Shown piece after piece: positions 22,026-50,379 of a DNA stretch of 64,000 bases (position 1 is the first letter of the stretch; the number at the start of each line of letters is the position of its first letter). Under the pieces are notes generated by a model. That model ran no database searches. It was not told where the DNA came from and saw nothing but the letters and a program-made list of their open reading frames with translations. Location of the stretch: IMG/VR virus record IMGVR_UViG_3300009509_000706, positions 3,466-67,465 of that record; one strand, given 5' to 3'. The stretch is from a virus. Both the position numbers and the translations under genes were made by a program.

Positions 22026-22403
22026 ATGGTTGACACGTTGCTAGACGCTGAACGCCTACGGGCACAGGTAGAAATTGAGATTACGAAGCAGGCACTAGAG
22101 CTTTTCAAAAGTCTGCGGCAAGAATACTCCGATATGAACGAGCGCCTACAAAGGCGCGTTGATGAGCTTGAAAAACAGCGAGCCGATAGTATCAAGCGCC
22201 TTGACGATCTCTCGATTTCATTAAAGGCCGCGCAGAAAAAAGAGAAAGATTATCAGAGCACAATCGCCAGGTTGACTAGAGAGGTAGAGGATTTGCGCCG
22301 AGAGATTATTTCATTGCGCAATGAAAATGTAGCCCTGAGCCGTTTGGTAGAGGAACTGCGCAACGAGATAGATGGTTTCCGGGCGGATATGCGCGGGGAT
22401 TGA
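22026..22403 (+). CDS. Coiled-coil protein in the lysis region
   Basis: Heptad pattern over about 100 aa. Confidence 0.55.
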   Translation: MVDTLLDAERLRAQVEIEITKQALELFKSLRQEYSDMNERLQRRVDELEKQRADSIKRLDDLSISLKAAQKKEKDYQSTIARLTREVEDLRREIISLRNENVALSRLVEELRNEIDGFRADMRGD

Positions 22404-22546: not shown

Positions 22547-22816
22547 ATGGAATACATGATCGGTACAATAGCAGTAAGCGCCCTGATTTTCGCTATCGTC
22601 GAATTTGCCAAAGCGAAACTCGGAATCAAGGACGGGGCCGTCGTTACTCTCGTGGCTATTCTTGGCGTGCTATTCACGGGGGTTTCAATATCAATCACTC
22701 AGGGTTACATCCCGCCCGACGTTGCTATCTGGATCGCTGGTATTGTTGAGTTTTTGGCTTCTATCCTCGGAGCGATGGGATTCTATAGTTATTTGAAGCG
22801 AAAGAATATCTATTGA
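22547..22816 (+). CDS. Putative holin
   Basis: 89 aa, 2-3 TM helices, IVEFAK..G motif, basic C-terminus, end of late operon. Confidence 0.7.
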   Translation: MEYMIGTIAVSALIFAIVEFAKAKLGIKDGAVVTLVAILGVLFTGVSISITQGYIPPDVAIWIAGIVEFLASILGAMGFYSYLKRKNIY

Positions 22817-22841
22817 CGCCGCCGTGATTTCATGGTACAAT
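22813..22841 (+). promoter_or_regulatory. Sigma70-type promoter for sRNA-1
   Basis: TTGACG-17-TACAAT with extended TG; the -35 overlaps the holin stop codon. Confidence 0.75.
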
Positions 22842-22847
22842 ATAACT

Positions 22848-22959
22848 GGTAAGCATTTAGTCCGTTGCGTGGGGACAAGCCCCACGCTACAAGACGGGCG
22901 CTATTTCTCCTTTCGCAGACGGCCCTGGTAAAAGGTGACACCAGGGCCGTTCTGTTTTT
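22848..22959 (+). ncRNA. Candidate sRNA-1 (hairpin, anti-SD tract, terminator)
   Basis: Own promoter; GCGTGGGG/CCCCACGC hairpin; CTATTTCTCCTTTC tract; 12-bp terminator stem plus T run. Confidence 0.6.
22918..22959 (+). terminator. Intrinsic terminator
   Basis: GACGGCCCTGGT...ACCAGGGCCGTT followed by CTGTTTTT. Confidence 0.8.
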
Positions 22960-23061
22960 ATAGTGATTTCAGGGCCAATCTTGCCAAAGTCTGCATATTC
23001 TAACTTTTCGGTTAAGAAAGGTTAGAATTTTGTTTTATAAGGCAATATACTATAACTTCGC

Positions 23062-23090
23062 TTGACAATGCGGGGGCATTGTGGTATACT
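23062..23090 (+). promoter_or_regulatory. Sigma70-type promoter
   Basis: TTGACA-17-TATACT with TG extension. Confidence 0.8.
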
Positions 23091-23123
23091 GTAACTATGT
23101 TGGAATGAAGGGAGAAATAGACA

Positions 23124-23621
23124 ATGAAACGCTTGTTTGACCCAAATTGTCAAGAGGTTAATAACGCACCTGCAAAACTCCGAGACAGGGCTATAAAAGA
23201 GGGGTTGAAACTTCTACAGATTGTCTGGGATAAAGAAGGTGGATACCTAGAGCATACCTGGGGATTTGAGCAATGGTCAATACGTCCTTACCGTTTGGGC
23301 TATGGGTGCGATGGTACTACAGACGAAAATATACACCTCATAGCCTGGAAAATCTGCGAACAGATCGGGATAGATTATCTCGCCTTGTATCTTGAGGCAT
23401 ATAACGATGACCTGCTTAACTTTGACGAATGGGATACAATAGCTCAGGAAACAGATATGCCAAAGCTTGGCGCACAATCAGATTTGGTGCTGCGCGGGAT
23501 ATTACATGACCTTAACGAAATAAACTGTAGAACGGTTGGGGATTCATTGCAAGATGAATTAGAACGACTTGGCTATAATGTTGATCAATGGTGGAATTAT
23601 AGAGAGGAGAAACTAACATGA
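23124..23621 (+). CDS. Hypothetical protein
   Basis: Strong RBS GAAGGGAG and own promoter. Confidence 0.7.
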   Translation: MKRLFDPNCQEVNNAPAKLRDRAIKEGLKLLQIVWDKEGGYLEHTWGFEQWSIRPYRLGYGCDGTTDENIHLIAWKICEQIGIDYLALYLEAYNDDLLNFDEWDTIAQETDMPKLGAQSDLVLRGILHDLNEINCRTVGDSLQDELERLGYNVDQWWNYREEKLT

Positions 23622-23779
23622 TTGAATTGATAAGTTTTGAAATATGGTACGAAGATGGAAAACTTGTAATCTGCGAACGCTATACTGGTAAACGAATAGT
23701 CTTTGATACGCTTGCCGAAGTAATAGCCTTTATTGAGGCAGAATTGCACGAAGTTCTAGGGGAGGATGACGATGGCTAG
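23618..23779 (+). CDS. Small hypothetical protein (53 aa, not in the ORF track)
   Basis: GAGGAG RBS, ATGA overlap, MIELISFEIWYEDGKL... Confidence 0.55.
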   Translation: MIELISFEIWYEDGKLVICERYTGKRIVFDTLAEVIAFIEAELHEVLGEDDDG

Positions 23780-24026
23780 GCCATTCGGAGAATACCCACA
23801 GCAGCACTTGCGGATTGCCGCAGAAAAGCAAGAGCTTTGCCAAGTCCTTGAAGCAGTGCCAGATACCAGGCGGCGGACAATCGTGCTGCTAACACTGCCA
23901 GCAGTAATTGACGTATTGGTTGCAATTGAGCAACTTGCACAAGGGCAAACCGCTGCGGACTGCCGAGAGATCGCGTCGCTTGCTCATGATGCATTGATGG
24001 TATTGAGGGGGAAACCGCAAAAGTGA
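23766..24026 (+). CDS. Hypothetical protein
   Basis: GGAGG RBS, coupled. Confidence 0.55.
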   Translation: MTMARPFGEYPQQHLRIAAEKQELCQVLEAVPDTRRRTIVLLTLPAVIDVLVAIEQLAQGQTAADCREIASLAHDALMVLRGKPQK

Positions 24027-24292
24027 AACTCTACCACGTAACGACAGAGAAAAAGGCACGTCTCTATAGACAATGCGGCCATATCAAGAAGCCTGTACGC
24101 GGATTCACAACGTTGCAAGCAGCAATGGCATGGGCTATCAAAGTCGGGCGCAAAGTGATATATGAGGTTGAAGCGCCAGACGAGGATTGCCACAAACTTC
24201 CCGACCATCACAACCAATGGGACGACGCATGGTGGATTGACGCCGATGTTACTCAACTCAAGTGCGTTTTTTCTGCCGAAAAAGATGCTTGA
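24023..24292 (+). CDS. Small protein with LYHVT N-terminus (possible ADP-ribosyltransferase-like fold)
   Basis: MKLYHVTT...GHI pattern; fold is inference. Confidence 0.45.
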   Translation: MKLYHVTTEKKARLYRQCGHIKKPVRGFTTLQAAMAWAIKVGRKVIYEVEAPDEDCHKLPDHHNQWDDAWWIDADVTQLKCVFSAEKDA

Positions 24293-24406
24293 CCGACAAG
24301 AGATATTTGAAAAAGGCCGCTAGAGAGGATTGGCAGCCTTTTCATTTTCCTGCTACTACAAAAGGTTAGAAATAGTTAGAATGTCGCACAACAGTTACAC
24401 AATCAC

Positions 24407-24518
24407 TTGACGGCAGACTGTTTTGCCTTTAAAATGGTAGTATGAACATCATAGTCATCATGATAGCATATCGGGGACGGGGCGGGCAAGGCGCGTAATA
24501 TGCGCCTGTCCGCCTTTT
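24407..24518 (+). promoter_or_regulatory. Promoter with attenuator-like leader
   Basis: TTGACG-17-TAAAAT; 18-codon uORF at 24442-24498; GC hairpin at 24481-24514 plus TTTT. Confidence 0.6.
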
Positions 24519-24542
24519 CATAATACACATAAGGCAAACATC

Positions 24543-25403
24543 ATGGCAGGGTATTTTACAGTTGACGTAAGCGATGCGCATGTTGGGTGCAGGCGCGGGC
24601 TATGTCCACCTTCTGTAATGTTAGATGGTGGCGATGAATATCAGCCCAGTAAGATTCAGCGAGCACTATGGGATTCCTGGCTTGACTTCTGGGAAACTAT
24701 GGCGAAGCTGGCTAAGGCAAAGCGGGCGAAATCTGCTAATATTGTCTTTGGCGGCGACATGGTAGACAAAAATGTTCACAAGGCTGGGGCGACTTGGACG
24801 CGCAATCCTAAAGACTTGAAAGAAGCCGCCTCACAAGTTGCTGAAGTACCATTTAGAGCTTTCAAAAAGCACGCGCCAAAGATTGCTACTTTTGTCTTTG
24901 TCGTGCGTGGTACTGAAGCACACGTTGGACGTGATGCGCATATCGAGGAATGGCTTGCCGAAGATATAGGGGCTGTGAGATCAACCGAGGGAACGAATAC
25001 AGCATCTTGGTGGGTACTTGATATAGAAAATAGCGGCGGATTATGGTTAAATTTTCAACACCATCCAGAGGCAGCTAGCCTTAGAGAAAATACTGTCGGA
25101 AACGCTGCCAGAACTTGTGCAAACGAGATTTTTCTATCGTATACTAGATATGGCGAGAAACCCCCTGATATAGCCATTCGACATCATTTGCATCGTTTTC
25201 AAGACTCAGGCCGCAACCTGCCAGTCCATTGTCTTTTTAATTGGGGCTGGCAACATAAGACGACGTATGTCCAACGGCGCGGCGGGGGTACTAAGATAAC
25301 TCCTGTCGGTGGCTTGTGGCTTCTCTGTGAGGATGGTAATTATATATGGGACGAATTGCACTATATACCGAGCGCGAGCGAGAGATGGCAACAAAAAGGA
25401 TGA
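24543..25403 (+). CDS. Calcineurin-like metallophosphoesterase
   Basis: SDAHVG, GGDMVD, RGTEAH, QHH, HHLH. Confidence 0.8.
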   Translation: MAGYFTVDVSDAHVGCRRGLCPPSVMLDGGDEYQPSKIQRALWDSWLDFWETMAKLAKAKRAKSANIVFGGDMVDKNVHKAGATWTRNPKDLKEAASQVAEVPFRAFKKHAPKIATFVFVVRGTEAHVGRDAHIEEWLAEDIGAVRSTEGTNTASWWVLDIENSGGLWLNFQHHPEAASLRENTVGNAARTCANEIFLSYTRYGEKPPDIAIRHHLHRFQDSGRNLPVHCLFNWGWQHKTTYVQRRGGGTKITPVGGLWLLCEDGNYIWDELHYIPSASERWQQKG

Positions 25404-25666
25404 GAATAACTGAGGCCGAAGTATTTGCCGAAATCGCAGCACTGTTATCGGCTGGCAAAGAGCGGGAACTTGGAACATTTACCACAGCAGAGCTTGCAGA
25501 ATATTTAGGCTGCTGTGCACCAACGGCACTGGTCAGAATCAAAAAACTTCTGGCCGCTGGAATAATTGAGAATGCACGTATACCTATTACCGATCTAGTA
25601 GGTAGGCAAACAACGACATTTGGATTCAAGTACATCGGCAAGTCAGAGCCGCCTATTGACGACTAG
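25385..25666 (+). CDS. Winged-helix DNA-binding protein
   Basis: FTTAELAEYLGC...IKKLLAAGII. Confidence 0.7.
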   Translation: MATKRMRITEAEVFAEIAALLSAGKERELGTFTTAELAEYLGCCAPTALVRIKKLLAAGIIENARIPITDLVGRQTTTFGFKYIGKSEPPIDD

Positions 25667-25684
25667 GCTATAATATGCTATAAT
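25656..25684 (+). promoter_or_regulatory. Sigma70-type promoter for sRNA-2
   Basis: TTGACG-17-TATAAT with TG; the -35 lies in the last codons of the upstream gene. Confidence 0.8.
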
Positions 25685-25689
25685 GAGAT

Positions 25690-25756
25690 CGTAGACCTTT
25701 CCCTCTCTTTCGCTTGGCGCTGGTAGCACTATCCCGCTACCAGCGCCTTTTGTTTT
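25690..25756 (+). ncRNA. Candidate sRNA-2 (anti-SD tract plus terminator)
   Basis: TTTCCCTCTCTT tract, then a perfect 12-bp stem GGCGCTGGTAGC/GCTACCAGCGCC and a T run. Confidence 0.6.
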
Positions 25757-25769
25757 GTGAAATTGGGGC

Positions 25770-25798
25770 TTGACAAATTCTGCATTTGGGTGTATAAT
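25770..25798 (+). promoter_or_regulatory. Consensus sigma70 promoter
   Basis: TTGACA-17-TATAAT; near copy of the minus-strand promoter at 44249-44277. Confidence 0.85.
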
Positions 25799-25833
25799 AG
25801 GTTATAATATATACAAGAGAGGGAAATAACAAA

Positions 25834-25977
25834 ATGAGTGACTTTGATGAATGGTTCGCACAAAAATACGAGGGTAAACTGGGGCCTCCGCCTATTGAAT
25901 TGTCATTTCGCGAAGTCGCAAAAATGCCTGGGATGCTGCTAGGCAATTATCTATTGGTAGGGGCATTAGCGAAATAA
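25834..25977 (+). CDS. Small hypothetical protein, possibly frameshifted
   Basis: RBS AAGAGAGGGAAA; MSDFDEWFAQKY... Confidence 0.5.
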   Translation: MSDFDEWFAQKYEGKLGPPPIELSFREVAKMPGMLLGNYLLVGALAK

Positions 25978-25980
25978 AGG

Positions 25981-26208
25981 ATGATTTGGTTGATGATTCT
26001 GCCAGTATACCTTAGCGAAAAAAAACACGCCGACATTATTTGCCGCTTGGAAACTGAGGCAAACAAATCGGCGGTGGTACAGGTAGCACTCACTAGCTAC
26101 TATGCAAAGCAAGATGCAAGTGATGATTTGCTCTTGCAACTTGCCGCGCAAGTCGCCAAGCTAGATGCTGATGTTGTGCGGTTGTGTGAGTTGCTTGAAG
26201 GTGGTTAG
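25981..26208 (+). CDS. Ribbon-helix-helix-like protein (ParR-like paralogue)
   Basis: PVYLS..KHADII.RLE...NKSAVVQVAL..YY plus coiled coil; resembles 28132-28410. Confidence 0.45.
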   Translation: MIWLMILPVYLSEKKHADIICRLETEANKSAVVQVALTSYYAKQDASDDLLLQLAAQVAKLDADVVRLCELLEGG

Positions 26209-27130: not shown

Positions 27131-28108
27131 ATGAACATCGGACTTGACGTAGGTTATTCAGCGACGAAAGCAGTCTCAGGGGAACGACGGGTAAATCTGC
27201 CGTCTATCGTCGGCACGCCAGACCGGGCGCGGTTTTCTATGGACGGTACAGATAATATGATTCTGGCTATGCCAGACGGCAAGGCTTTTCAGGTGGGGCA
27301 AGCCGCCATTCTACAGAGCCGCTTTGTTGACCGGCAAGAGGATCGGGGATGGATCGAGAGCGCGGCCTACCATGCCTTGATGCTGGCCGCACTCACAGAA
27401 TTGACACCAGCGACGGTTGATGCCGTTGTCGTCTCTGGCCTGCCGGTAGCCTTCTACGGCGACAAGGACGTACTGCGGAATCGTCTGCTGGGCGAGCACC
27501 GTGTAACCCGTGAGGGACGACGCGCGCAGCTTTTCCGCGTCACCGAGGCGCGTGTCATCCCCCAGCCCTTCGGCACGCTCTTGGCGGCGGCGCTGGACAA
27601 TAGCGGGCGCATCGCAGACCAGACACTTGCCGCTGGCTCCGTAGGCGTAATTGATTGCGGGGGTAAAACCACCAATTTGCTCTCTGTCCACCGACTGGCC
27701 GAAATCAGCCACAAGACGGCCAGCGTCAATCTGGGGGCCTGGGATGTGGCGCGGGCGGTTGGCAATTGGCTGGCCGACAACTGTCCGAATCTCGACTTGC
27801 GAGACCACCAATTGATGGACGCTATCATTGCTCGTGAAGTCACTTACTATGGCGAGTCGGTTGACCTGAGCGAAATCGTTTCCGAGACATTGCAACCTAT
27901 GGCCGACCAGGTTATTGCTCAGGCGGGCCAGTTGTGGAATGGGGCGGCTGGGCTGGCAGCTATTCTCGTGACTGGTGGCGGGGCGCTCATGTTGGGACCT
28001 AGCATCAAGGCCCACTTCCGGCACGCCAGAGTAGTTGACGATCCAGTATTCGCTAATGCACTGGGCTACTGGAAGTTTGCGCAGCGCCTCTCTAATAATC
28101 AATCATAA
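27131..28108 (+). CDS. parM: ParM/StbA-family actin-like ATPase
   Basis: GLDVGYSATK, VSGLP, IPQPFG, VIDCGGKTTN, VTGGGA, FANALGY. Confidence 0.92.
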   Translation: MNIGLDVGYSATKAVSGERRVNLPSIVGTPDRARFSMDGTDNMILAMPDGKAFQVGQAAILQSRFVDRQEDRGWIESAAYHALMLAALTELTPATVDAVVVSGLPVAFYGDKDVLRNRLLGEHRVTREGRRAQLFRVTEARVIPQPFGTLLAAALDNSGRIADQTLAAGSVGVIDCGGKTTNLLSVHRLAEISHKTASVNLGAWDVARAVGNWLADNCPNLDLRDHQLMDAIIAREVTYYGESVDLSEIVSETLQPMADQVIAQAGQLWNGAAGLAAILVTGGGALMLGPSIKAHFRHARVVDDPVFANALGYWKFAQRLSNNQS

Positions 28109-31477: not shown

Positions 31478-31819
31478 ATGAGAAAAACCTTAGCCCCAAC
31501 TGCTGAACTAGCAACGCCACGGGTTCGCAAATTCATTGAATCAAAATTGCTTCCAAGGCTATTTGGTGAGTCAGCCGTAATCACAGATTTTTACCTATGT
31601 GAGCCAGCTACAAATCTGGTATCGAGCCGCGAGGAAACATGGATTGAGGCAAACTGGGGCCTAGAAATTGAAGCTGAGAGGTTTTGTGTTATGGATTTTG
31701 ATGAGGTGAGAGAATCATCTACGACAGTAGGCATTGGCGATGCTTCAGTTTGCGGTACACCAAATCCGTTCAAGATCGCAGTATCATTGTGGCTATACGC
31801 CAAAGTGATGCGAGAATAA
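31478..31819 (+). CDS. Hypothetical protein
   Basis: GAGGAGG RBS; last gene of the rightward block. Confidence 0.6.
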   Translation: MRKTLAPTAELATPRVRKFIESKLLPRLFGESAVITDFYLCEPATNLVSSREETWIEANWGLEIEAERFCVMDFDEVRESSTTVGIGDASVCGTPNPFKIAVSLWLYAKVMRE

Positions 31820-31822
31820 AAG

Positions 31823-31866
31823 GCAAAAAAGAAGCCGAGGGCTAATCCCCTCGGCTTCTTTTTGCG
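31823..31866. terminator. Bidirectional terminator at convergent operons
   Basis: AAAAAAGAAGCCGAGGG...CCCTCGGCTTCTTTTT. Confidence 0.85.
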
Positions 31867-31910
31867 TTCCATTTTGATTGGTTTAATTGTTGCTATAACA
31901 CATGAATCAT

Positions 31911-31991
31911 AAAATAGAAGCCCCCGGCGTAGGTGTCGGGGGGCTTCTTTGGCGCTCCATTGCGCCATGCGCCAGTGCTGACTGTGCACTG
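31911..31991 (-). ncRNA. Candidate sRNA-3 (three hairpins, one with an AAUGGA loop)
   Basis: Minus-strand promoter TTGACA-17-TACAAT at 32026-31998; two short hairpins, then a terminator at 31916-31948. Confidence 0.55.
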
Positions 31992-32022
31992 CCTGCCATT
32001 GTATCATGGCCGTGGCATAGTG

Positions 32023-32220
32023 TCAAGACGTTGTGATGTGGATTTCGGCATCGCTGCCGAAACTTGCACTGACTGTGGCCGCAAGGCCACTAGCCAAAAT
32101 GGCTTGATACCAAAATTCTGGATAGCCATCACAAGCAGCTTTGACTTTATCACAATTACTATCCCACTCTGCCCTTGTCTTACTTCCACGCATCAACTCA
32201 ACAACTTCTTGCTCTGTCAT
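32023..32220 (-). CDS. Hypothetical protein
   Basis: GAAAGGA RBS. Confidence 0.6.
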   Translation of the reverse strand: MTEQEVVELMRGSKTRAEWDSNCDKVKAACDGYPEFWYQAILASGLAATVSASFGSDAEIHITTS

Positions 32221-32260: not shown

Positions 32261-33178
32261 TTATGCCTCGGCGGCCAATTGTTCCGCCTGTTCGACCTCA
32301 GCTTCTGCCCTGTTGGCATATCCCTCAAGGTCAGCGATAACATCCGCCAGATTCGCATCGTTGATTTCGAGATAGCCCATCTTGCCAGCAGCGCCTAACA
32401 TGTGAAAGAAATCTGGCGATCCGTTTGCGGTCTGATAATACGGCTCTTTCTCTGATAGTTGTGTTGCAGCAGAAGTCCAGCCGCCGCCCTTGACAGGCGG
32501 ACGCTTGCCAGTCGGCCCGTCTTGTTTCCAGCCCGTTGTGGCATGTTGTGCGGGCGCCGGCGCTTTTCTGGCAGGGTGGGCAGGCGCGTCTTTGCGGGGC
32601 ATAGGCTCGCGCTGTTCCGGCTCTGACATGGCAGGCCCAGATAATACTGCCCCCTCAATAATCTCGCCATCGGCGTCTACTTCTACGCCAAGCTCTTCTG
32701 GCGTATAGACTGGCCCGCCGAAGATGTCTGGGCAATACCATTTTGCCCCGTTGCTCAAGGCGCGAGCAAGATACATATTTGCTGGATGTTTTTTCCAATT
32801 ATCCTTACCGAGCAATCCAGCGCGGGCAGCATCCTCTTTGTCGAACTTTGAGATACCCAAACTCTGGCTATTCTCGAAAAACTCGATTTCGCAACTATCG
32901 TTACTATGACTCTTGATTCTATAGTCATACTTCCCACTGCGTTTGATAGCAGCGCCCATGAGAATGGCAGACAATGTGACCCGACCATTGACGATATAAA
33001 TATTCGTCATAGATGCAATTGGGCCAAAGCCCAATTCACGCCCAGCTAAAACTTTTGTAACCGCCTGGGCTGCTTGTCGGCTATCCTGGAAAAATCCAGA
33101 CTGCGCCAATACCTCACCGAGCCGGATTGTTTCTGCCAGGCTCATATCTTGCTGAAATGGAATGATTGCCTTGCTCAT
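32261..33178 (-). CDS. RecT/Red-beta-like single-strand annealing protein
   Basis: GRELGFGPIASMTNIYIVNGR and WKKHPANM..ARA...CPD. Confidence 0.8.
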   Translation of the reverse strand: MSKAIIPFQQDMSLAETIRLGEVLAQSGFFQDSRQAAQAVTKVLAGRELGFGPIASMTNIYIVNGRVTLSAILMGAAIKRSGKYDYRIKSHSNDSCEIEFFENSQSLGISKFDKEDAARAGLLGKDNWKKHPANMYLARALSNGAKWYCPDIFGGPVYTPEELGVEVDADGEIIEGAVLSGPAMSEPEQREPMPRKDAPAHPARKAPAPAQHATTGWKQDGPTGKRPPVKGGGWTSAATQLSEKEPYYQTANGSPDFFHMLGAAGKMGYLEINDANLADVIADLEGYANRAEAEVEQAEQLAAEA

Positions 33179-33218
33179 TATATTTCTCCCTTCATTGTTT
33201 TGTTAAACGCATGTTCAT

Positions 33219-36649: not shown

Positions 36650-36696
36650 TTTGTCCCTTTCATTGCGCAATGAAGCGCCATCTCCCAACTGCGGCC

Positions 36697-41640: not shown

Positions 41641-41837
41641 AAACAAAAGCCCTAATGTGCTATCACCTGAGCGGTATCGGCGGCAAAGGTTTTTTGTGCT
41701 ATACGTGACGCTCCGTATAGCCCGTTACCGCCCATGTGATAGTCCACAAGGGCTTTTCCTTACCTTTGCCTAACTGTTAAAATAGGGGCGTCACTCCCTA
41801 CTAACTCCATTCTACCACGTTTCGCCAGAATTGTCAA
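41641..41837 (-). ncRNA. C4/CI-like antisense switch A
   Basis: TTGACA-17-TAGAAT; long stem 41645-41757; boxes GUGACGC and GGCAAAGGU complementary to enclosed sequences. Confidence 0.7.
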
Positions 41838-44076
41838 GCGGAATACTGTCATTTGCAGACTGCGCTTCCGCCCAGGCAAACAAATCGAGGGAATTTACAT
41901 CGCGCTCGACCATTTGCAGATTCTTGACGGCTACGTTGAAATAACTTTGCTTCAATTCTATGCCGATCCCCTTGCGTCCCATCTTGACGGCCTGGTAAAT
42001 CTCTGAGCCAATCCCGGCGAAGGGCGAAAGGATCGTTTCGCCAGGATTGCTCCAAAGCGCGATACAGCGTTCAATTGTACCAAGTTGCAGGGGGCAGATA
42101 TGCTTGTCATCATCCTCGGCGCGGGCAGTCGTATATTGTAGGGTATCAGTTTCTCTGATTCCCCACCAAATCGGATGCGCCCATTCGATCCATTGATCCC
42201 GTGTTAACTCTCCGTTGGCTACGGGATTGATCGGCGTTTGATTCTCGCCAGGTTTTTTGAAAATCAGGATATAATCGCCAATCGCTGGCCTTGACCACGA
42301 GCTGTCTTTTTCCATTTGGACAAAAAGAAGCGCCTTGCTATGCGTGCGAATGGCCTGTGCTTGCGGATTCTTATCTATCGTGACTCTGCCGTGATAAATC
42401 CATCCGCGATCCTCAAAGGCAGCGATGACTTTGCCAGGGAAATCTTTAAGGCCAATATAGCCATCCTTGCTGAGCAGAGCAGGTACATCAGCAGTATGGA
42501 CGGCGCAGATACGTCCAGGTCGCGTTACCCGCAGTAAATGATCAATGATATAGCCAAAGTGGATAAAGAAATCATCCGCATTGGCAGAATTACCCAAGTC
42601 ACGCTCCGTAGGACTATATGTATACAAATCCATAAAAGGCGGACTGAATACGCTAAAATCAATGCTGTCAGTCTTGATTTCTGCCAGACGCTCTACAGAA
42701 TCACCCAGCATCAAAGTCCAATCCTTGCCCTTGATGGTATCAACGTTATATGTTTCCCCACCATCATTTTGTTCCGCCAGCTCATCTCTTTCAAAAGCCT
42801 GTACATTTTCGATGAGTTTAGTTGCCATAGTATTTGCCTGCTCCTCTTTTCTCATAATATTAGTGTAAATCTCTTGTTCTACATCTCCGAGTACAATGTG
42901 AACATTGACCTCTTCTTTTTGCCCGAACCTGTAACAACGACGGATGGCCTGATAGTATGCTTCCCAGCTATCACTCAAGCCGACGAATATCATATTGTGG
43001 CAATTCTGGAAATTCATACCGAAGCCAGCGATCTTCGTTTTAGTAACCAAGACTCTTATAGTGCCATTCTGGAAGTTTTCTAACGCCTCAATCTTCGCAT
43101 CAAGGCTATCACTGCCTTGTACCTCTACAGCATCATGTATGGCTTTAGCCAGCGCCGCACTTTCATCATTCAGACCGCACCAAACGATCCATTGTTCGCT
43201 AGAATTATTGACGATTTCAGCAGCAGCAGAGACTCTATCTCCTATGGTTTCGCGTCTTATTTGTCGCCTATGCCCTATGCCCTTGAGACCAGTAAAAAAC
43301 AACTGGTCTTCTGGGACATAATCTGTGGGGACGAATAGTGAAAAGATATTTAGTGGGGGAAGTACGAATCCGTCATCGTCATAGCCGAGATCGGACGGCT
43401 TGCGTACTGACATGCCCCAACTGGCGAGCCAACGGTAAAATGCTTCTTCAGCATGGCCGCGCAATCGCCAGCCTTTGTCATCATGTACGAAAAAGGCGGC
43501 AAGCATATCGGCTCTGGTCATCACGCCTAGAAATTCGGCATGGTTGGCAATCTCTGCAATGTCATTCGGGGCTGGCGTTGCTGTACAACAGAGTCTTAGT
43601 TGCACATCAGAAAACATATCCGTTAGCTTGCGCCGCGTCTTGCCGTCAAGCCCTTTCAAAATCGAGCTTTCATCTAATATTACCGCGCCGAAGGCGGCAG
43701 GATTAAATCGCTCGATCATTTCATAATTGGTTATATAGATTTGCGATGGGCTATTATCCGCCTGTTCCTGGCTGCGTACATAATAGACTTGCAGATCAAT
43801 TTTCTGCGCCTCTCTTACCGTTTGTTTGGCTACTGACAAGGGGGCAATAATCAATGTTCTTTTGCCAGATAACCTGGCCCATTCCAGTTGCATGAATGTC
43901 TTCCCCAGGCCAGTATCAGCAAATATCGCCGCCCGCCCCTTGCGCAGCGCCCAGATAGTCAAATCCTTTTGGAAGTCAAAAAGTAGCCTGTGTACTTCAG
44001 ATTGTGGCGCAGAAATGCCGCACGTTTTTGCTTTGATACATTTTGTTTTCAAGAAGGCTTGATAATTCATGCTCAT
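41812..44076 (-). CDS. SNF2-like helicase fused to an N4/N6 DNA methyltransferase
   Basis: DTGLGKT, LDESS, TATPAPN, QAIRRCYRFG; VFSPPF and LSPFAGIGS. Confidence 0.9.
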   Translation of the reverse strand: MSMNYQAFLKTKCIKAKTCGISAPQSEVHRLLFDFQKDLTIWALRKGRAAIFADTGLGKTFMQLEWARLSGKRTLIIAPLSVAKQTVREAQKIDLQVYYVRSQEQADNSPSQIYITNYEMIERFNPAAFGAVILDESSILKGLDGKTRRKLTDMFSDVQLRLCCTATPAPNDIAEIANHAEFLGVMTRADMLAAFFVHDDKGWRLRGHAEEAFYRWLASWGMSVRKPSDLGYDDDGFVLPPLNIFSLFVPTDYVPEDQLFFTGLKGIGHRRQIRRETIGDRVSAAAEIVNNSSEQWIVWCGLNDESAALAKAIHDAVEVQGSDSLDAKIEALENFQNGTIRVLVTKTKIAGFGMNFQNCHNMIFVGLSDSWEAYYQAIRRCYRFGQKEEVNVHIVLGDVEQEIYTNIMRKEEQANTMATKLIENVQAFERDELAEQNDGGETYNVDTIKGKDWTLMLGDSVERLAEIKTDSIDFSVFSPPFMDLYTYSPTERDLGNSANADDFFIHFGYIIDHLLRVTRPGRICAVHTADVPALLSKDGYIGLKDFPGKVIAAFEDRGWIYHGRVTIDKNPQAQAIRTHSKALLFVQMEKDSSWSRPAIGDYILIFKKPGENQTPINPVANGELTRDQWIEWAHPIWWGIRETDTLQYTTARAEDDDKHICPLQLGTIERCIALWSNPGETILSPFAGIGSEIYQAVKMGRKGIGIELKQSYFNVAVKNLQMVERDVNSLDLFAWAEAQSANDSIPLDNSGETW

Positions 44077-44104
44077 TTCTCCATTCTTATATTACTCTAG
44101 TTGT

Positions 44105-44277
44105 AAAATAAAAGGCCCTGATCCCCATGCCCGTTGCCCGCTTTGTTGTTAAAATCCACTCTCGCTGCCAGGCAAGAATGCGGCAAAACGGGCCGGGGGA
44201 TCAAGGCCCTCGGCTAAAACCTATATTCATTCTTGCCTGGCATTCTCTATTATACACCCAAACACAAAATCTGTCAA
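44105..44277 (-). ncRNA. Antisense/attenuator switch C upstream of the helicase-MTase
   Basis: TTGACA-17-TATAAT; 15-nt leader box exactly complementary to a sequence inside the long stem 44113-44210, which ends in a U run. Confidence 0.65.
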
Positions 44278-44427
44278 GCCCCAATCTGTGCTGCATATTC
44301 ACGGCGCAACGCCTCAAGAATCCTGGTCGCTGTGCTTGCCCCGCAAGCCTCAACCTCGGACAGTGCGGCCTCAAGCTCTACCAGGTCAAAGTCATCTGGA
44401 ATGAGCAATGTTAGAATCTCGCCCATA

Positions 44428-48651: not shown

Positions 48652-48918
48652 TTATATCCCGCTTGGTTGCGCCGTTGTATCTTGATGGTCGCGCCAGTCG
48701 GCGGCTTCTTGCTCGGCTTCTTCAATCGTCGGCCACTTTGGGCCTGATGTGCAATGGCAACGGCGCTCCTCAAACTCACCACACCAACTCATACTTGGGC
48801 TTGTAACTTGGGGCCATTCCCACCTCAATTCATCAGAATATGGGCGCGGGGCATACCGCCTGCACTCTCCAAGCCCCTCGTGTAATTCATTGTAGAATCT
48901 GCAATTTTGACATTTCAT
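48652..48918 (-). CDS. Cys-rich phage protein (CxxC...CRR.AP...WP...WCGEF)
   Basis: Characteristic motif; GAGAGGG RBS. Confidence 0.6.
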   Translation of the reverse strand: MKCQNCRFYNELHEGLGECRRYAPRPYSDELRWEWPQVTSPSMSWCGEFEERRCHCTSGPKWPTIEEAEQEAADWRDHQDTTAQPSGI

Positions 48919-49513: not shown

Positions 49514-49634
49514 ATTATACAGCATTTCGCCAAGTCTGTCAAGCCTTTTTGCAAGGCTATTACCTTATGCGACAAATTCTAACCATTTCTAACCAAAATG
49601 CGCTATTGAATTTCTGGATAGTTTGTGGTATAAT
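49514..49634. promoter_or_regulatory. Divergent promoter pair with a central GTTAGAA direct-repeat site
   Basis: Minus TTGACA-17-TATAAT (49542-49514); plus TTGAAT-17-TATAAT (49606-49634); TTCTAACCATTTCTAACC between them. Confidence 0.8.
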
Positions 49635-50379
49635 ATTGGTACGGGCGGTCGCCAGTGTTGAAAGTCGGCTCTCTGCCGTGTAGTATTGCCTCTGCGGGGC
49701 CAATACTCTAGACGCTGGCAGGCCGCATTAAAACCCGCCTGGACGCGGGGGTAAAATAGCGGGTTAATATGGAAACAGGGGGCGGTAACGGCGTCCAGGC
49801 ATATATTTGAGGGCAGAAGGGGACGATATGGGAAATGGGAATATTGGGGGCCTTGCCCAGATTAGGGGCGGCGGCGAGGTATGTAATGAATAAGAAGTGT
49901 ATCGTATGTGACGGCGATATACTGCTGAGCTCAGGCTGGTTCGTCAAAGGTTATAGAAAAGGCTGGGTGTGTTCTGACGAATGTTGGGACAAATATCATC
50001 AAGATGAGCGAGCGCGCGCAATCCGCATTTCTTGGTTGGGGTCTGGGTTGGGACGAGGCGCTATCGGCGGATAGCTAGAGCTAGAAAGGTAAAGTAAAAA
50101 TGTTCGAGTTTCCGTGTTGGTTTGAGATTCTTGCCAAATGGATACTGGGGCCACACCTCAATCATTGCTGTATAGAATGATTTTTGCCCATATAGACTAG
50201 AAAGGTCAAAATATGTATGCTTACGATTGCTTAGAGGATTTCATTGTGTCAACACTCGGTTGGTCTTGGAGCGGATAGGCGTTCTGGGCGGGCGCGGTTG
50301 GACGGGGCCGCGCCTGGCCCGTTCATTGCGCAATGAAAGATAATCTTCACAAGTCTGGCGTTATGAAAGGAAACTTGCA

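Follow-up and report, generated by a model that had tools for sequence, protein, structure and literature searches.

Does the segment between a small wHTH gene of this virus and the operon behind it encode an RNA that keeps ribosomes off the next gene, or do its complementary arms have another role? The window analyzed here is a stretch of 64,000 nucleotides, i.e., bases 3466-67465 of the 67,465-bp IMG/VR record IMGVR_UViG_3300009509_000706, a virus record with direct terminal repeats. Its genes point rightward up to about 31.8 kb, leftward up to about 49.6 kb, and rightward thereafter. Near the locus, which we call sRNA-2, the order is a 286-aa gene, the small wHTH gene, the sRNA-2 unit, small ORFs, and a ParM/ALP-type gene. 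The wHTH product has weak HTH matches only (Pfam), and its ATG at 25385 is a more likely start than that at 25346, because the homologue in the relative G001 (L003) opens with the equivalent MATK. The ParM/ALP-type gene suggests a plasmid-like prophage state; an Anaerolineales MAG contig carries a copy whose protein is 62% identical, and this is the sole and weak hint that the host belongs to the Anaerolineales (Chloroflexota). Rfam scans of the whole window at the gathering score and tRNA scans gave no matches. The features needed for the argument are as follows.

25346-25666, plus strand: wHTH ORF, with its stop codon at 25664-25666
25656-25684, plus strand: promoter P1, TTGACG-17-TATAAT with TG (extended -10), consensus score 11/12
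25691-25757, plus strand: predicted sRNA-2 transcript of about 67 nt, the 5' 25 nt single-stranded, then the terminator hairpin
25696-25711, plus strand: polypyrimidine tract of 16 nt, containing the anti-SD seed 25697-25709
25716-25757, plus strand: intrinsic terminator, a perfect 12-bp stem (9 G-C) at 25716-25747 with an 8-nt loop, then TTTTGTTTTG
25770-25798, plus strand: promoter P2, TTGACA-17-TATAAT, consensus score 12/12, heading the target operon
25815-25826, plus strand: proximal target SD region AAGAGAGGGAAA, 7 nt before the ATG at 25834
25834-25977, plus strand: 47-aa ORF, first cistron after P2, an orphan
27131-28108, plus strand: ParM/ALP-type actin-like partition gene (Pfam ALP_N, 1.7e-27; phrog_691)

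The -35 hexamer of P1 (25656-25661) overlaps the final wHTH codons, ahead of the stop. Promoters were called by agreement with the consensus, and for the host of this phage there is only the hint of Anaerolineales; the RNA start at 25691 assumes 7 nt past the -10. The unit has no ATG and no ORF. In the predicted fold of the 67-nt RNA, the 5' 25 nt are unpaired and are followed by the terminator hairpin (MFE, -26.2 kcal/mol; z, -6.5). The pyrimidine tract is the longest on the plus strand of the genome and holds a 13-nt seed, CUUUCCCUCUCUU, within which TTTCCCTCTCTT (25698-25709) has its exact reverse complement in AAGAGAGGGAAA (25815-25826). Consensus and structure scans thus find a short ORF-free unit bounded by its own promoter and a factor-independent terminator, and the predicted fold leaves accessible a seed complementary to the start region of a target; both are marks of trans-encoded base-pairing sRNAs. 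The earlier note had described a promoter in the last wHTH codons, an RNA of about 65 nt with a perfect terminator, and a seed exactly complementary to the RBS of the next, separately promoted gene, and each of these points is borne out at the level of sequence and prediction. An attenuator or riboswitch was discarded, as the predicted folds contain no alternative pairing with the terminator arm. An RBS of a minus-strand gene was discarded as well, as no start codon follows.

P2 begins 12 bases past the T-tract of the sRNA-2 terminator. Its promoter type, GGCTTGACA-N12-GGGYGTATAAT, recurs in the phage, at 25767-25798 (plus strand), 44249-44280 (minus strand), and 49514-49545 (minus strand), where it heads three operons with none expected by chance; the same GGCTTGACA-type promoter is present in G001 (L003, 2921-2952). 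Transcripts from P2 are predicted to have an unstructured 5' UTR, leaving the SD free. The next ORF (25981-26208) has an SD-like AAGGA four bases ahead of its ATG, and the stop codon of the 47-aa ORF overlaps this motif, so that the two appear to be translationally coupled and a block of the first cistron could lower the next. The 47-aa ORF is called from its SD, spacing, and coupling only; among 5.8 billion clustered proteins, no homologue besides itself was found. Pfam and PHROGs gave no matches for the 47-, 75-, 88-, and 165-aa products of this and the other loci treated here, and an impression that the 75-aa ORF is ribbon-helix-helix-like is unsupported. A type I toxin-antitoxin system was also rejected, since the hydrophobic C-terminal part of the 47-aa product spans, by inspection, only about 17 residues, and the other targets have 88 and 165 aa.

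One further element concerns the P2-type promoters themselves. At 44075-44285 (minus strand), such a promoter is followed by a highly structured leader of about 170 nt with a perfect 15-bp long-range stem (z, -5.5), which ends in a stem and U-tract just before a helicase-methyltransferase gene (41812-44076). Rfam has no match to this leader, which may regulate in cis, as an attenuator or otherwise.

The layout of sRNA-2 is found a second time in the window, in a unit that we call sRNA-1.

22813-22962, plus strand: sRNA-1 unit, with promoter 22813-22841, a 5' hairpin, seed CTATTTCTCCTTTC at 22901-22914, and terminator 22919-22950
23104-23123, plus strand: proximal target SD region of sRNA-1, GAAGGGAGAAATAG, before the 165-aa ORF at 23124
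33181-33196, minus strand: distal site of sRNA-1, leader AATGAAGGGAGAAATA, before the RecT-like gene 32261-33178

Here too, promoter, seed, and terminator are followed by a promoted target, as the earlier note had held: the 165-aa ORF has its own promoter (23062-23090), behind two terminators, and the sRNA-1 seed pairs with its SD region at 13 of 14 positions (93%). The two units have in common CTATTGACG at the -35, whose exact copies lie only at 22810 and 25653 (2 of 17 matches at one mismatch or fewer), and CTTTCGC 2 nt ahead of the terminator stem (22910-22916 in sRNA-1; 25707-25713 in sRNA-2), and both of these shared features had been pointed out before; the 5' hairpin is extra in sRNA-1. 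An identical 16-nt leader, AATGAAGGGAGAAATA, occurs at 23104-23119 (plus strand) and 33181-33196 (minus strand) before two unrelated operon-first genes, and the sRNA-1 seed would therefore pair similarly with the RecT-like gene.

We then have to consider how readily such a layout would arise by chance. Strict terminators number 6 in the whole genome against 0.27 expected, and promoter-like sites scoring at least 10/12 number 37 against 16.8 expected. Defined as such a promoter with a strict terminator within 10-150 nt downstream, promoter-to-terminator units occur three times in the 67-kb genome and not once in 30 shuffles, and two of the three (sRNA-1 and sRNA-2) bear an anti-SD tract matching the start region of the next gene. 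A complement to the neighbor of at least 12 nt was reached by 10 of 20,000 composition-matched shuffles of the exposed 25 nt of sRNA-2, and the sRNA-1 match to its neighbor (10 nt perfect; 13/14 with one mismatch) was equaled in 11 of 20,000. Besides, the 12-mer at one mismatch or fewer is present 4 times in the window against 0.28 expected, a count that none of 100 shuffles reached. The sRNA-2 layout is a real, non-random feature, and the argument that its repetition speaks against chance holds.

Two other patterns of the genome may be recorded here. The third promoter-to-terminator unit, at 31815-32026 (minus strand), consists of TTGACA-17-TACAAT with TG and then two hairpin terminators; it lies where the converging gene blocks meet, and its predicted product is a structured non-coding RNA of 90-170 nt (z, -6.9) that has no pyrimidine seed. 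A perfect palindrome, TTCATTGCGCAATGAA, occurs three times (22309-22326, 36659-36674, and 50322-50337) and may be the operator of a dimeric regulator.

A second candidate target of sRNA-2 lies 23 kb away, in a leftward operon behind a P2-like promoter.

48935-48924, minus strand: distal target SD region AGAGAGGGAAAG, 5 nt before the ATG of the 88-aa ORF
48652-48918, minus strand: 88-aa Cys-rich ORF, conserved in G001 with 40% identity over all 88 aa

In sRNA-2, CTTTCCCTCTCT pairs with AGAGAGGGAAAG over 12 nt, so the match to this RBS that had been claimed is present, in a register shifted by one base relative to the pairing with the neighbor. When both strands of the 67-kb genome were searched for perfect complements of the exposed 25 nt (own antisense excluded), the longest were two of 12 nt each, and both stand on the coding strand 5-7 nt before start codons, i.e., those of the neighbor and the 88-aa ORF; the third-longest (11 nt) is antisense to a gene. 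Two 12-nt complements anywhere in the genome were found for 3.1% of 3000 composition-matched shuffled seeds, and for this reason the distal match is weak taken alone. Cofolding of sRNA-2 with 107 start regions (mean, -10.0 kcal/mol; sd, 4.9) ranked the distal one first (-22.5 kcal/mol) and the neighbor eighth (-19.1 kcal/mol), and several purine-rich start regions score like the neighbor. Four other start regions, sRNA-1-matched ones included, gave -9.5 to -13.9 kcal/mol, and cognate pairs are predicted to gain about 5-9 kcal/mol over non-cognate ones. The ranking leaves aside a coarse duplex scan that sampled every 7th position and allowed long bulged G-U pairings. By these modeled energies, the orthogonality of sRNA-1 and sRNA-2 is only partial, and target discrimination is softer than the earlier note assumed.

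Complementary arms on one strand are also inverted repeats in the DNA. At least 11 nt long and 40-300 nt apart, such repeats occur 4 times in the window, and 2 of the 4 are the anti-SD/SD pairs. The 12-bp repeats of sRNA-2, about 117 bp apart from center to center, could accordingly be protein-binding or recombination sites, such as operators that the wHTH protein brings into a loop, or the boundaries of a promoter segment that can invert; they flank the terminator and P2, and the wHTH gene stands directly upstream. Yet one arm is an SD properly spaced from its ATG and the other is a predicted transcribed, unpaired RNA segment, the distal match is single-copy rather than a repeat pair, and the contigs examined contain no strand-changing joint (rare forms could escape contigs). 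We regard a function at the DNA level as very improbable.

The soft energies bear more on another explanation, namely, a real promoter and terminator with a complementarity that serves no specific regulation. In that case, the tract would be a generic anti-SD-like or pyrimidine element, e.g., a protein-binding site, a stabilizing 3' end, or a mimic of the 16S tail without target choice, and the 12-nt matches would reflect pyrimidine-versus-purine composition and shared RBS motifs. The eighth rank of the neighbor fits this explanation, and so do the genome-wide significance of the 12-mers (only P = 0.03) and the lack of sRNA-2 in G001. Furthermore, the seed of sRNA-1 is near a generic anti-SD, being the complement of the commonest RBS form in the phage, AAAGGAGAAA, and several ribosome sites match it. 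Against it stand the rarity of neighbor matches of such length among shuffled seeds for both RNAs, their appearance in two of only three promoter-to-terminator units, and the leaders of the target pairs, which are identical over 16 nt and 11 nt and extend past the SD core. On balance, an element of this generic kind seems rather unlikely.

G001, the only syntenic relative (flanking proteins 45-48% identical; ParM, 85%), gives an independent view of these units. After its wHTH gene, a terminator and P2 are present without P1 and without a clear anti-SD. It does carry a homologue of sRNA-1. There the promoter, ATTGACGCC..., lies within the 3' end of an unrelated gene and precedes a 5' hairpin, a seed GTTTCTTCTCCTTTCGC that ends in CUCCUUUCGC, and two terminators, followed downstream by a similar promoter and then a gene. 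The top three genome-wide complements of this seed, 12, 11, and 11 nt long, all fall on ribosome sites; two of them use a part of the seed that differs from the sRNA-1 of the window. The gene next to the homologue ranks only 5 of 90 by energy. The matches hint that seed and target of sRNA-1 drift together across phages, but they fall short of proof, since the 3' half of the seed simply complements the RBS form used most often in these phages. G001 has a further RNA candidate at 50000-50290 (L067, 10000-10290), where a promoter is followed by a nested-hairpin RNA with 15-nt and 12-nt inverted repeats and then by a tRNA-like sequence, seemingly interrupted.

Outside these two genomes, the sRNA-2 module was found at about 93% identity in DNA contigs from two other studies. 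One (X3 record 15) covers 25650-25800 with 10 substitutions and 2 indels and the other (X9 record 24) covers 25630-25779 with 11 substitutions and 3 indels; beyond those limits, the flanks gave no alignment at the 80% threshold. The differences listed leave the terminator stem, the -35, and the correctly spaced -10 of both contigs unchanged; a further 4 (X3) and 5 (X9) substitutions are outside those listed and may fall in promoter or terminator. Spacer positions 25669 and 25674 differ in both contigs, so that a mis-spaced TATAAT (25669-25674) is lost. In the seed, both have lost one base at 25706, and X9 has T>C at 25704. The earlier claim that seed and target change together is therefore visible only in the two paralogous pairs of this genome; the stretches read in the variant contigs cover the seed and stop short of the ribosome site.

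The hope that Chloroflexota phages and genomes would yield further members was likewise met only in part, with one sRNA-1 homologue in the closest relative and none else. Layout patterns in viral contigs gave 1 and 2 matches, attributable to chance and G001, and in 401 Anaerolineae-class genomes the layout pattern, in its form with the shorter gap, gave a single match that is a gene start and hence chance. A DNA search of the phage GenBank collection gave no match, the terminator as an exact pattern gave none in viral contigs and none in metagenome contigs, and a DNA search with the sRNA-2 region in 4 related virus records gave promoter fragments only. A protein search with the wHTH product found no relatives; one with the 286-aa protein found none either, and as a two-sequence alignment it recovered G001 alone in viral contigs and nothing in metagenome contigs. 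ParM relatives were found at 4 viral loci and on 1 Anaerolineales MAG contig, with upstream synteny in G001 (L003) only. Of 55 loci in a scan for P2-type promoters, related-looking flanks were seen only in L030, which is G001 itself.

A further explanation needs no separate RNA. The tract would be the 3' end of the wHTH transcript and would fold onto the next SD in read-through RNA, P1 would be incidental, and the 47-aa gene would be translated solely from P2 transcripts. In read-through RNA from 25691 to 25870, the arms are predicted to pair as a 12-bp anti-SD:SD helix enclosing the terminator, in the MFE and the centroid structure alike (z, -4.15), while the SD is free in the predicted fold of the P2 transcript. 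The arms flank the target promoter in both the sRNA-1 and the sRNA-2 unit, and there is a precedent in the T4 genes e, soc, 49, and I-TevI, as described in PMC3014915. However, a perfect 12-bp terminator stands between the arms, and two terminators do so in sRNA-1 and its G001 homologue, so little read-through is expected; where two terminators precede the target promoter, the anti-SD RNA can be argued to end there. P1 is near-consensus, with hexamers unchanged among the differences listed in the variant contigs. Besides, the second perfect 12-nt match lies 23 kb off on the other strand, where folding in cis is impossible, and the best complements of the G001 sRNA-1 homologue are distal. Occlusion in cis only is, in our judgment, unlikely.

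We therefore favor the reading that sRNA-2 is an anti-RBS RNA, about 67 nt long, which acts in trans and may in addition insulate in cis, and we give this model about an even chance. It is preferred to occlusion in cis only because of the near-consensus P1, the strength and doubling of the terminators, the perfect distal match, and the distal matches in G001, and it is also preferred to the generic element and to the DNA-level repeat. A further point in its favor is that the distal target is a real, conserved gene whose G001 orthologue, in a phage lacking sRNA-2, carries another RBS (AAGAGGAGCAAA). According to the model, P1 in the last wHTH codons would fire into the strong intrinsic terminator and yield the short RNA, whose seed, in the single-stranded 5' 25 nt, would pair with the SD regions of two phage mRNAs, i.e., those of the 47-aa ORF as first cistron of the P2 operon and of the conserved 88-aa gene. 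Pairing would keep the 30S subunit off both SD sites and lower translation. The pyrimidine tract might also silence the neighbor in cis when transcripts escape the terminator.

Judged from its sequence, sRNA-2 most probably represents a new small-RNA gene whose functional kind is already known; its predicted RNA would work like an RBS-occluding base-pairing sRNA. In RsaE/RoxS-type sRNAs of Bacillota, exposed C-rich motifs pair with G-rich SD sequences. sRNA-2 is similar in its exposed pyrimidine motif, predicted to act against an SD, and differs in being phage-encoded, in having no Rfam match, and in presenting its seed as one linear 5' stretch instead of hairpin-loop motifs.

In phages P1 and P7, a target site of c4 covers the icd ribosome site, and c4 itself is processed from the transcript that also carries its target. 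Like c4, sRNA-2 is a phage RNA specified on the same strand upstream of its target operon, it is predicted to pair with the target mRNA and is not an overlapping antisense transcript, and the target operon opens with a small ORF (icd in c4; the 47-aa ORF here). The content of the P1 immI operon c4-icd-ant and its requirement for C4 RNA are given in PMC8198154. Unlike c4, sRNA-2 has its own promoter and terminator and its target a separate promoter; the terminator at 25716-25757 and the promoter at 25770-25798 intervene, so release from the transcript of the target does not apply. Its fold is also simpler, a single-stranded seed and a terminator. A search of the whole window for Rfam C4 (P1/P7 c4, P4 CI RNA) or any other family gave nothing at the gathering score, and at E values up to 10 over 22700-25900 there was one match, to an unrelated leader family on the other strand.

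In its position, sRNA-2 resembles DapZ, MicL, and MicX, with P1 within the last part of the preceding coding gene and a shared terminator. For DapZ, PMC9438474 places the promoter just before the dapB stop codon and describes a terminator shared with dapB; here, correspondingly, the -35 precedes the wHTH stop, and the terminator is shared with the wHTH mRNA. Those RNAs are, by contrast, enterobacterial or Vibrio host sRNAs, mostly Hfq-bound, with no sequence relation to sRNA-2, which is phage-borne and has the adjacent gene as its main target. The order of upstream arm, promoter, and SD arm is that of the T4 e type, in which the SD is sequestered in long transcripts and free in those from the promoter between the arms, as PMC3014915 reports. 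In silico, the helix likewise forms in the long RNA and is absent in the short P2 RNA. Unlike the T4 e type, the upstream arm of sRNA-2 is flanked by a dedicated promoter and a strong terminator, and there is a second, distal perfect match. More generally, phage-derived sRNAs are presented as an emerging class in PMC12197685.

If sRNA-2 is made and active, it would be a very small and easily dissected riboregulator, consisting of a 25-nt seed region and a terminator. The pair of sRNA-1 and sRNA-2 would then provide a direct test of how well short anti-SD seeds discriminate among purine-rich ribosome sites, and of whether one element combines cis insulation against read-through with trans repression. 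If the RNA is not made, the arms would still mark a T4-e-like device limiting translation to promoter-proximal transcripts.

To our knowledge, no phage or host sRNA regulator has been characterized in the Chloroflexota, and no RNA-based regulation has been studied there. It is conceivable, though quite improbable as a joint proposal, that the phage has a small family of minimal riboregulators mimicking the 16S tail, with a common 3' core, a variable 5' extension, and action both in cis and in trans. The core CUC(C)UUUCGC would lie beside the terminator, and the 5' extension would pick a private set of ribosome sites; each member would stand directly before one target, acting in cis on read-through RNA and in trans on promoter-proximal or distant mRNAs. 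A 16S 3' end was found in none of the genomes searched in the candidate host group (1, then 13, of which 2 had 5' fragments only), so the comparison with 16S uses the generally known tail sequence. Such a family, if real, would amount to a retargetable anti-RBS toolkit of natural origin with which a Chloroflexota phage times its early operons.
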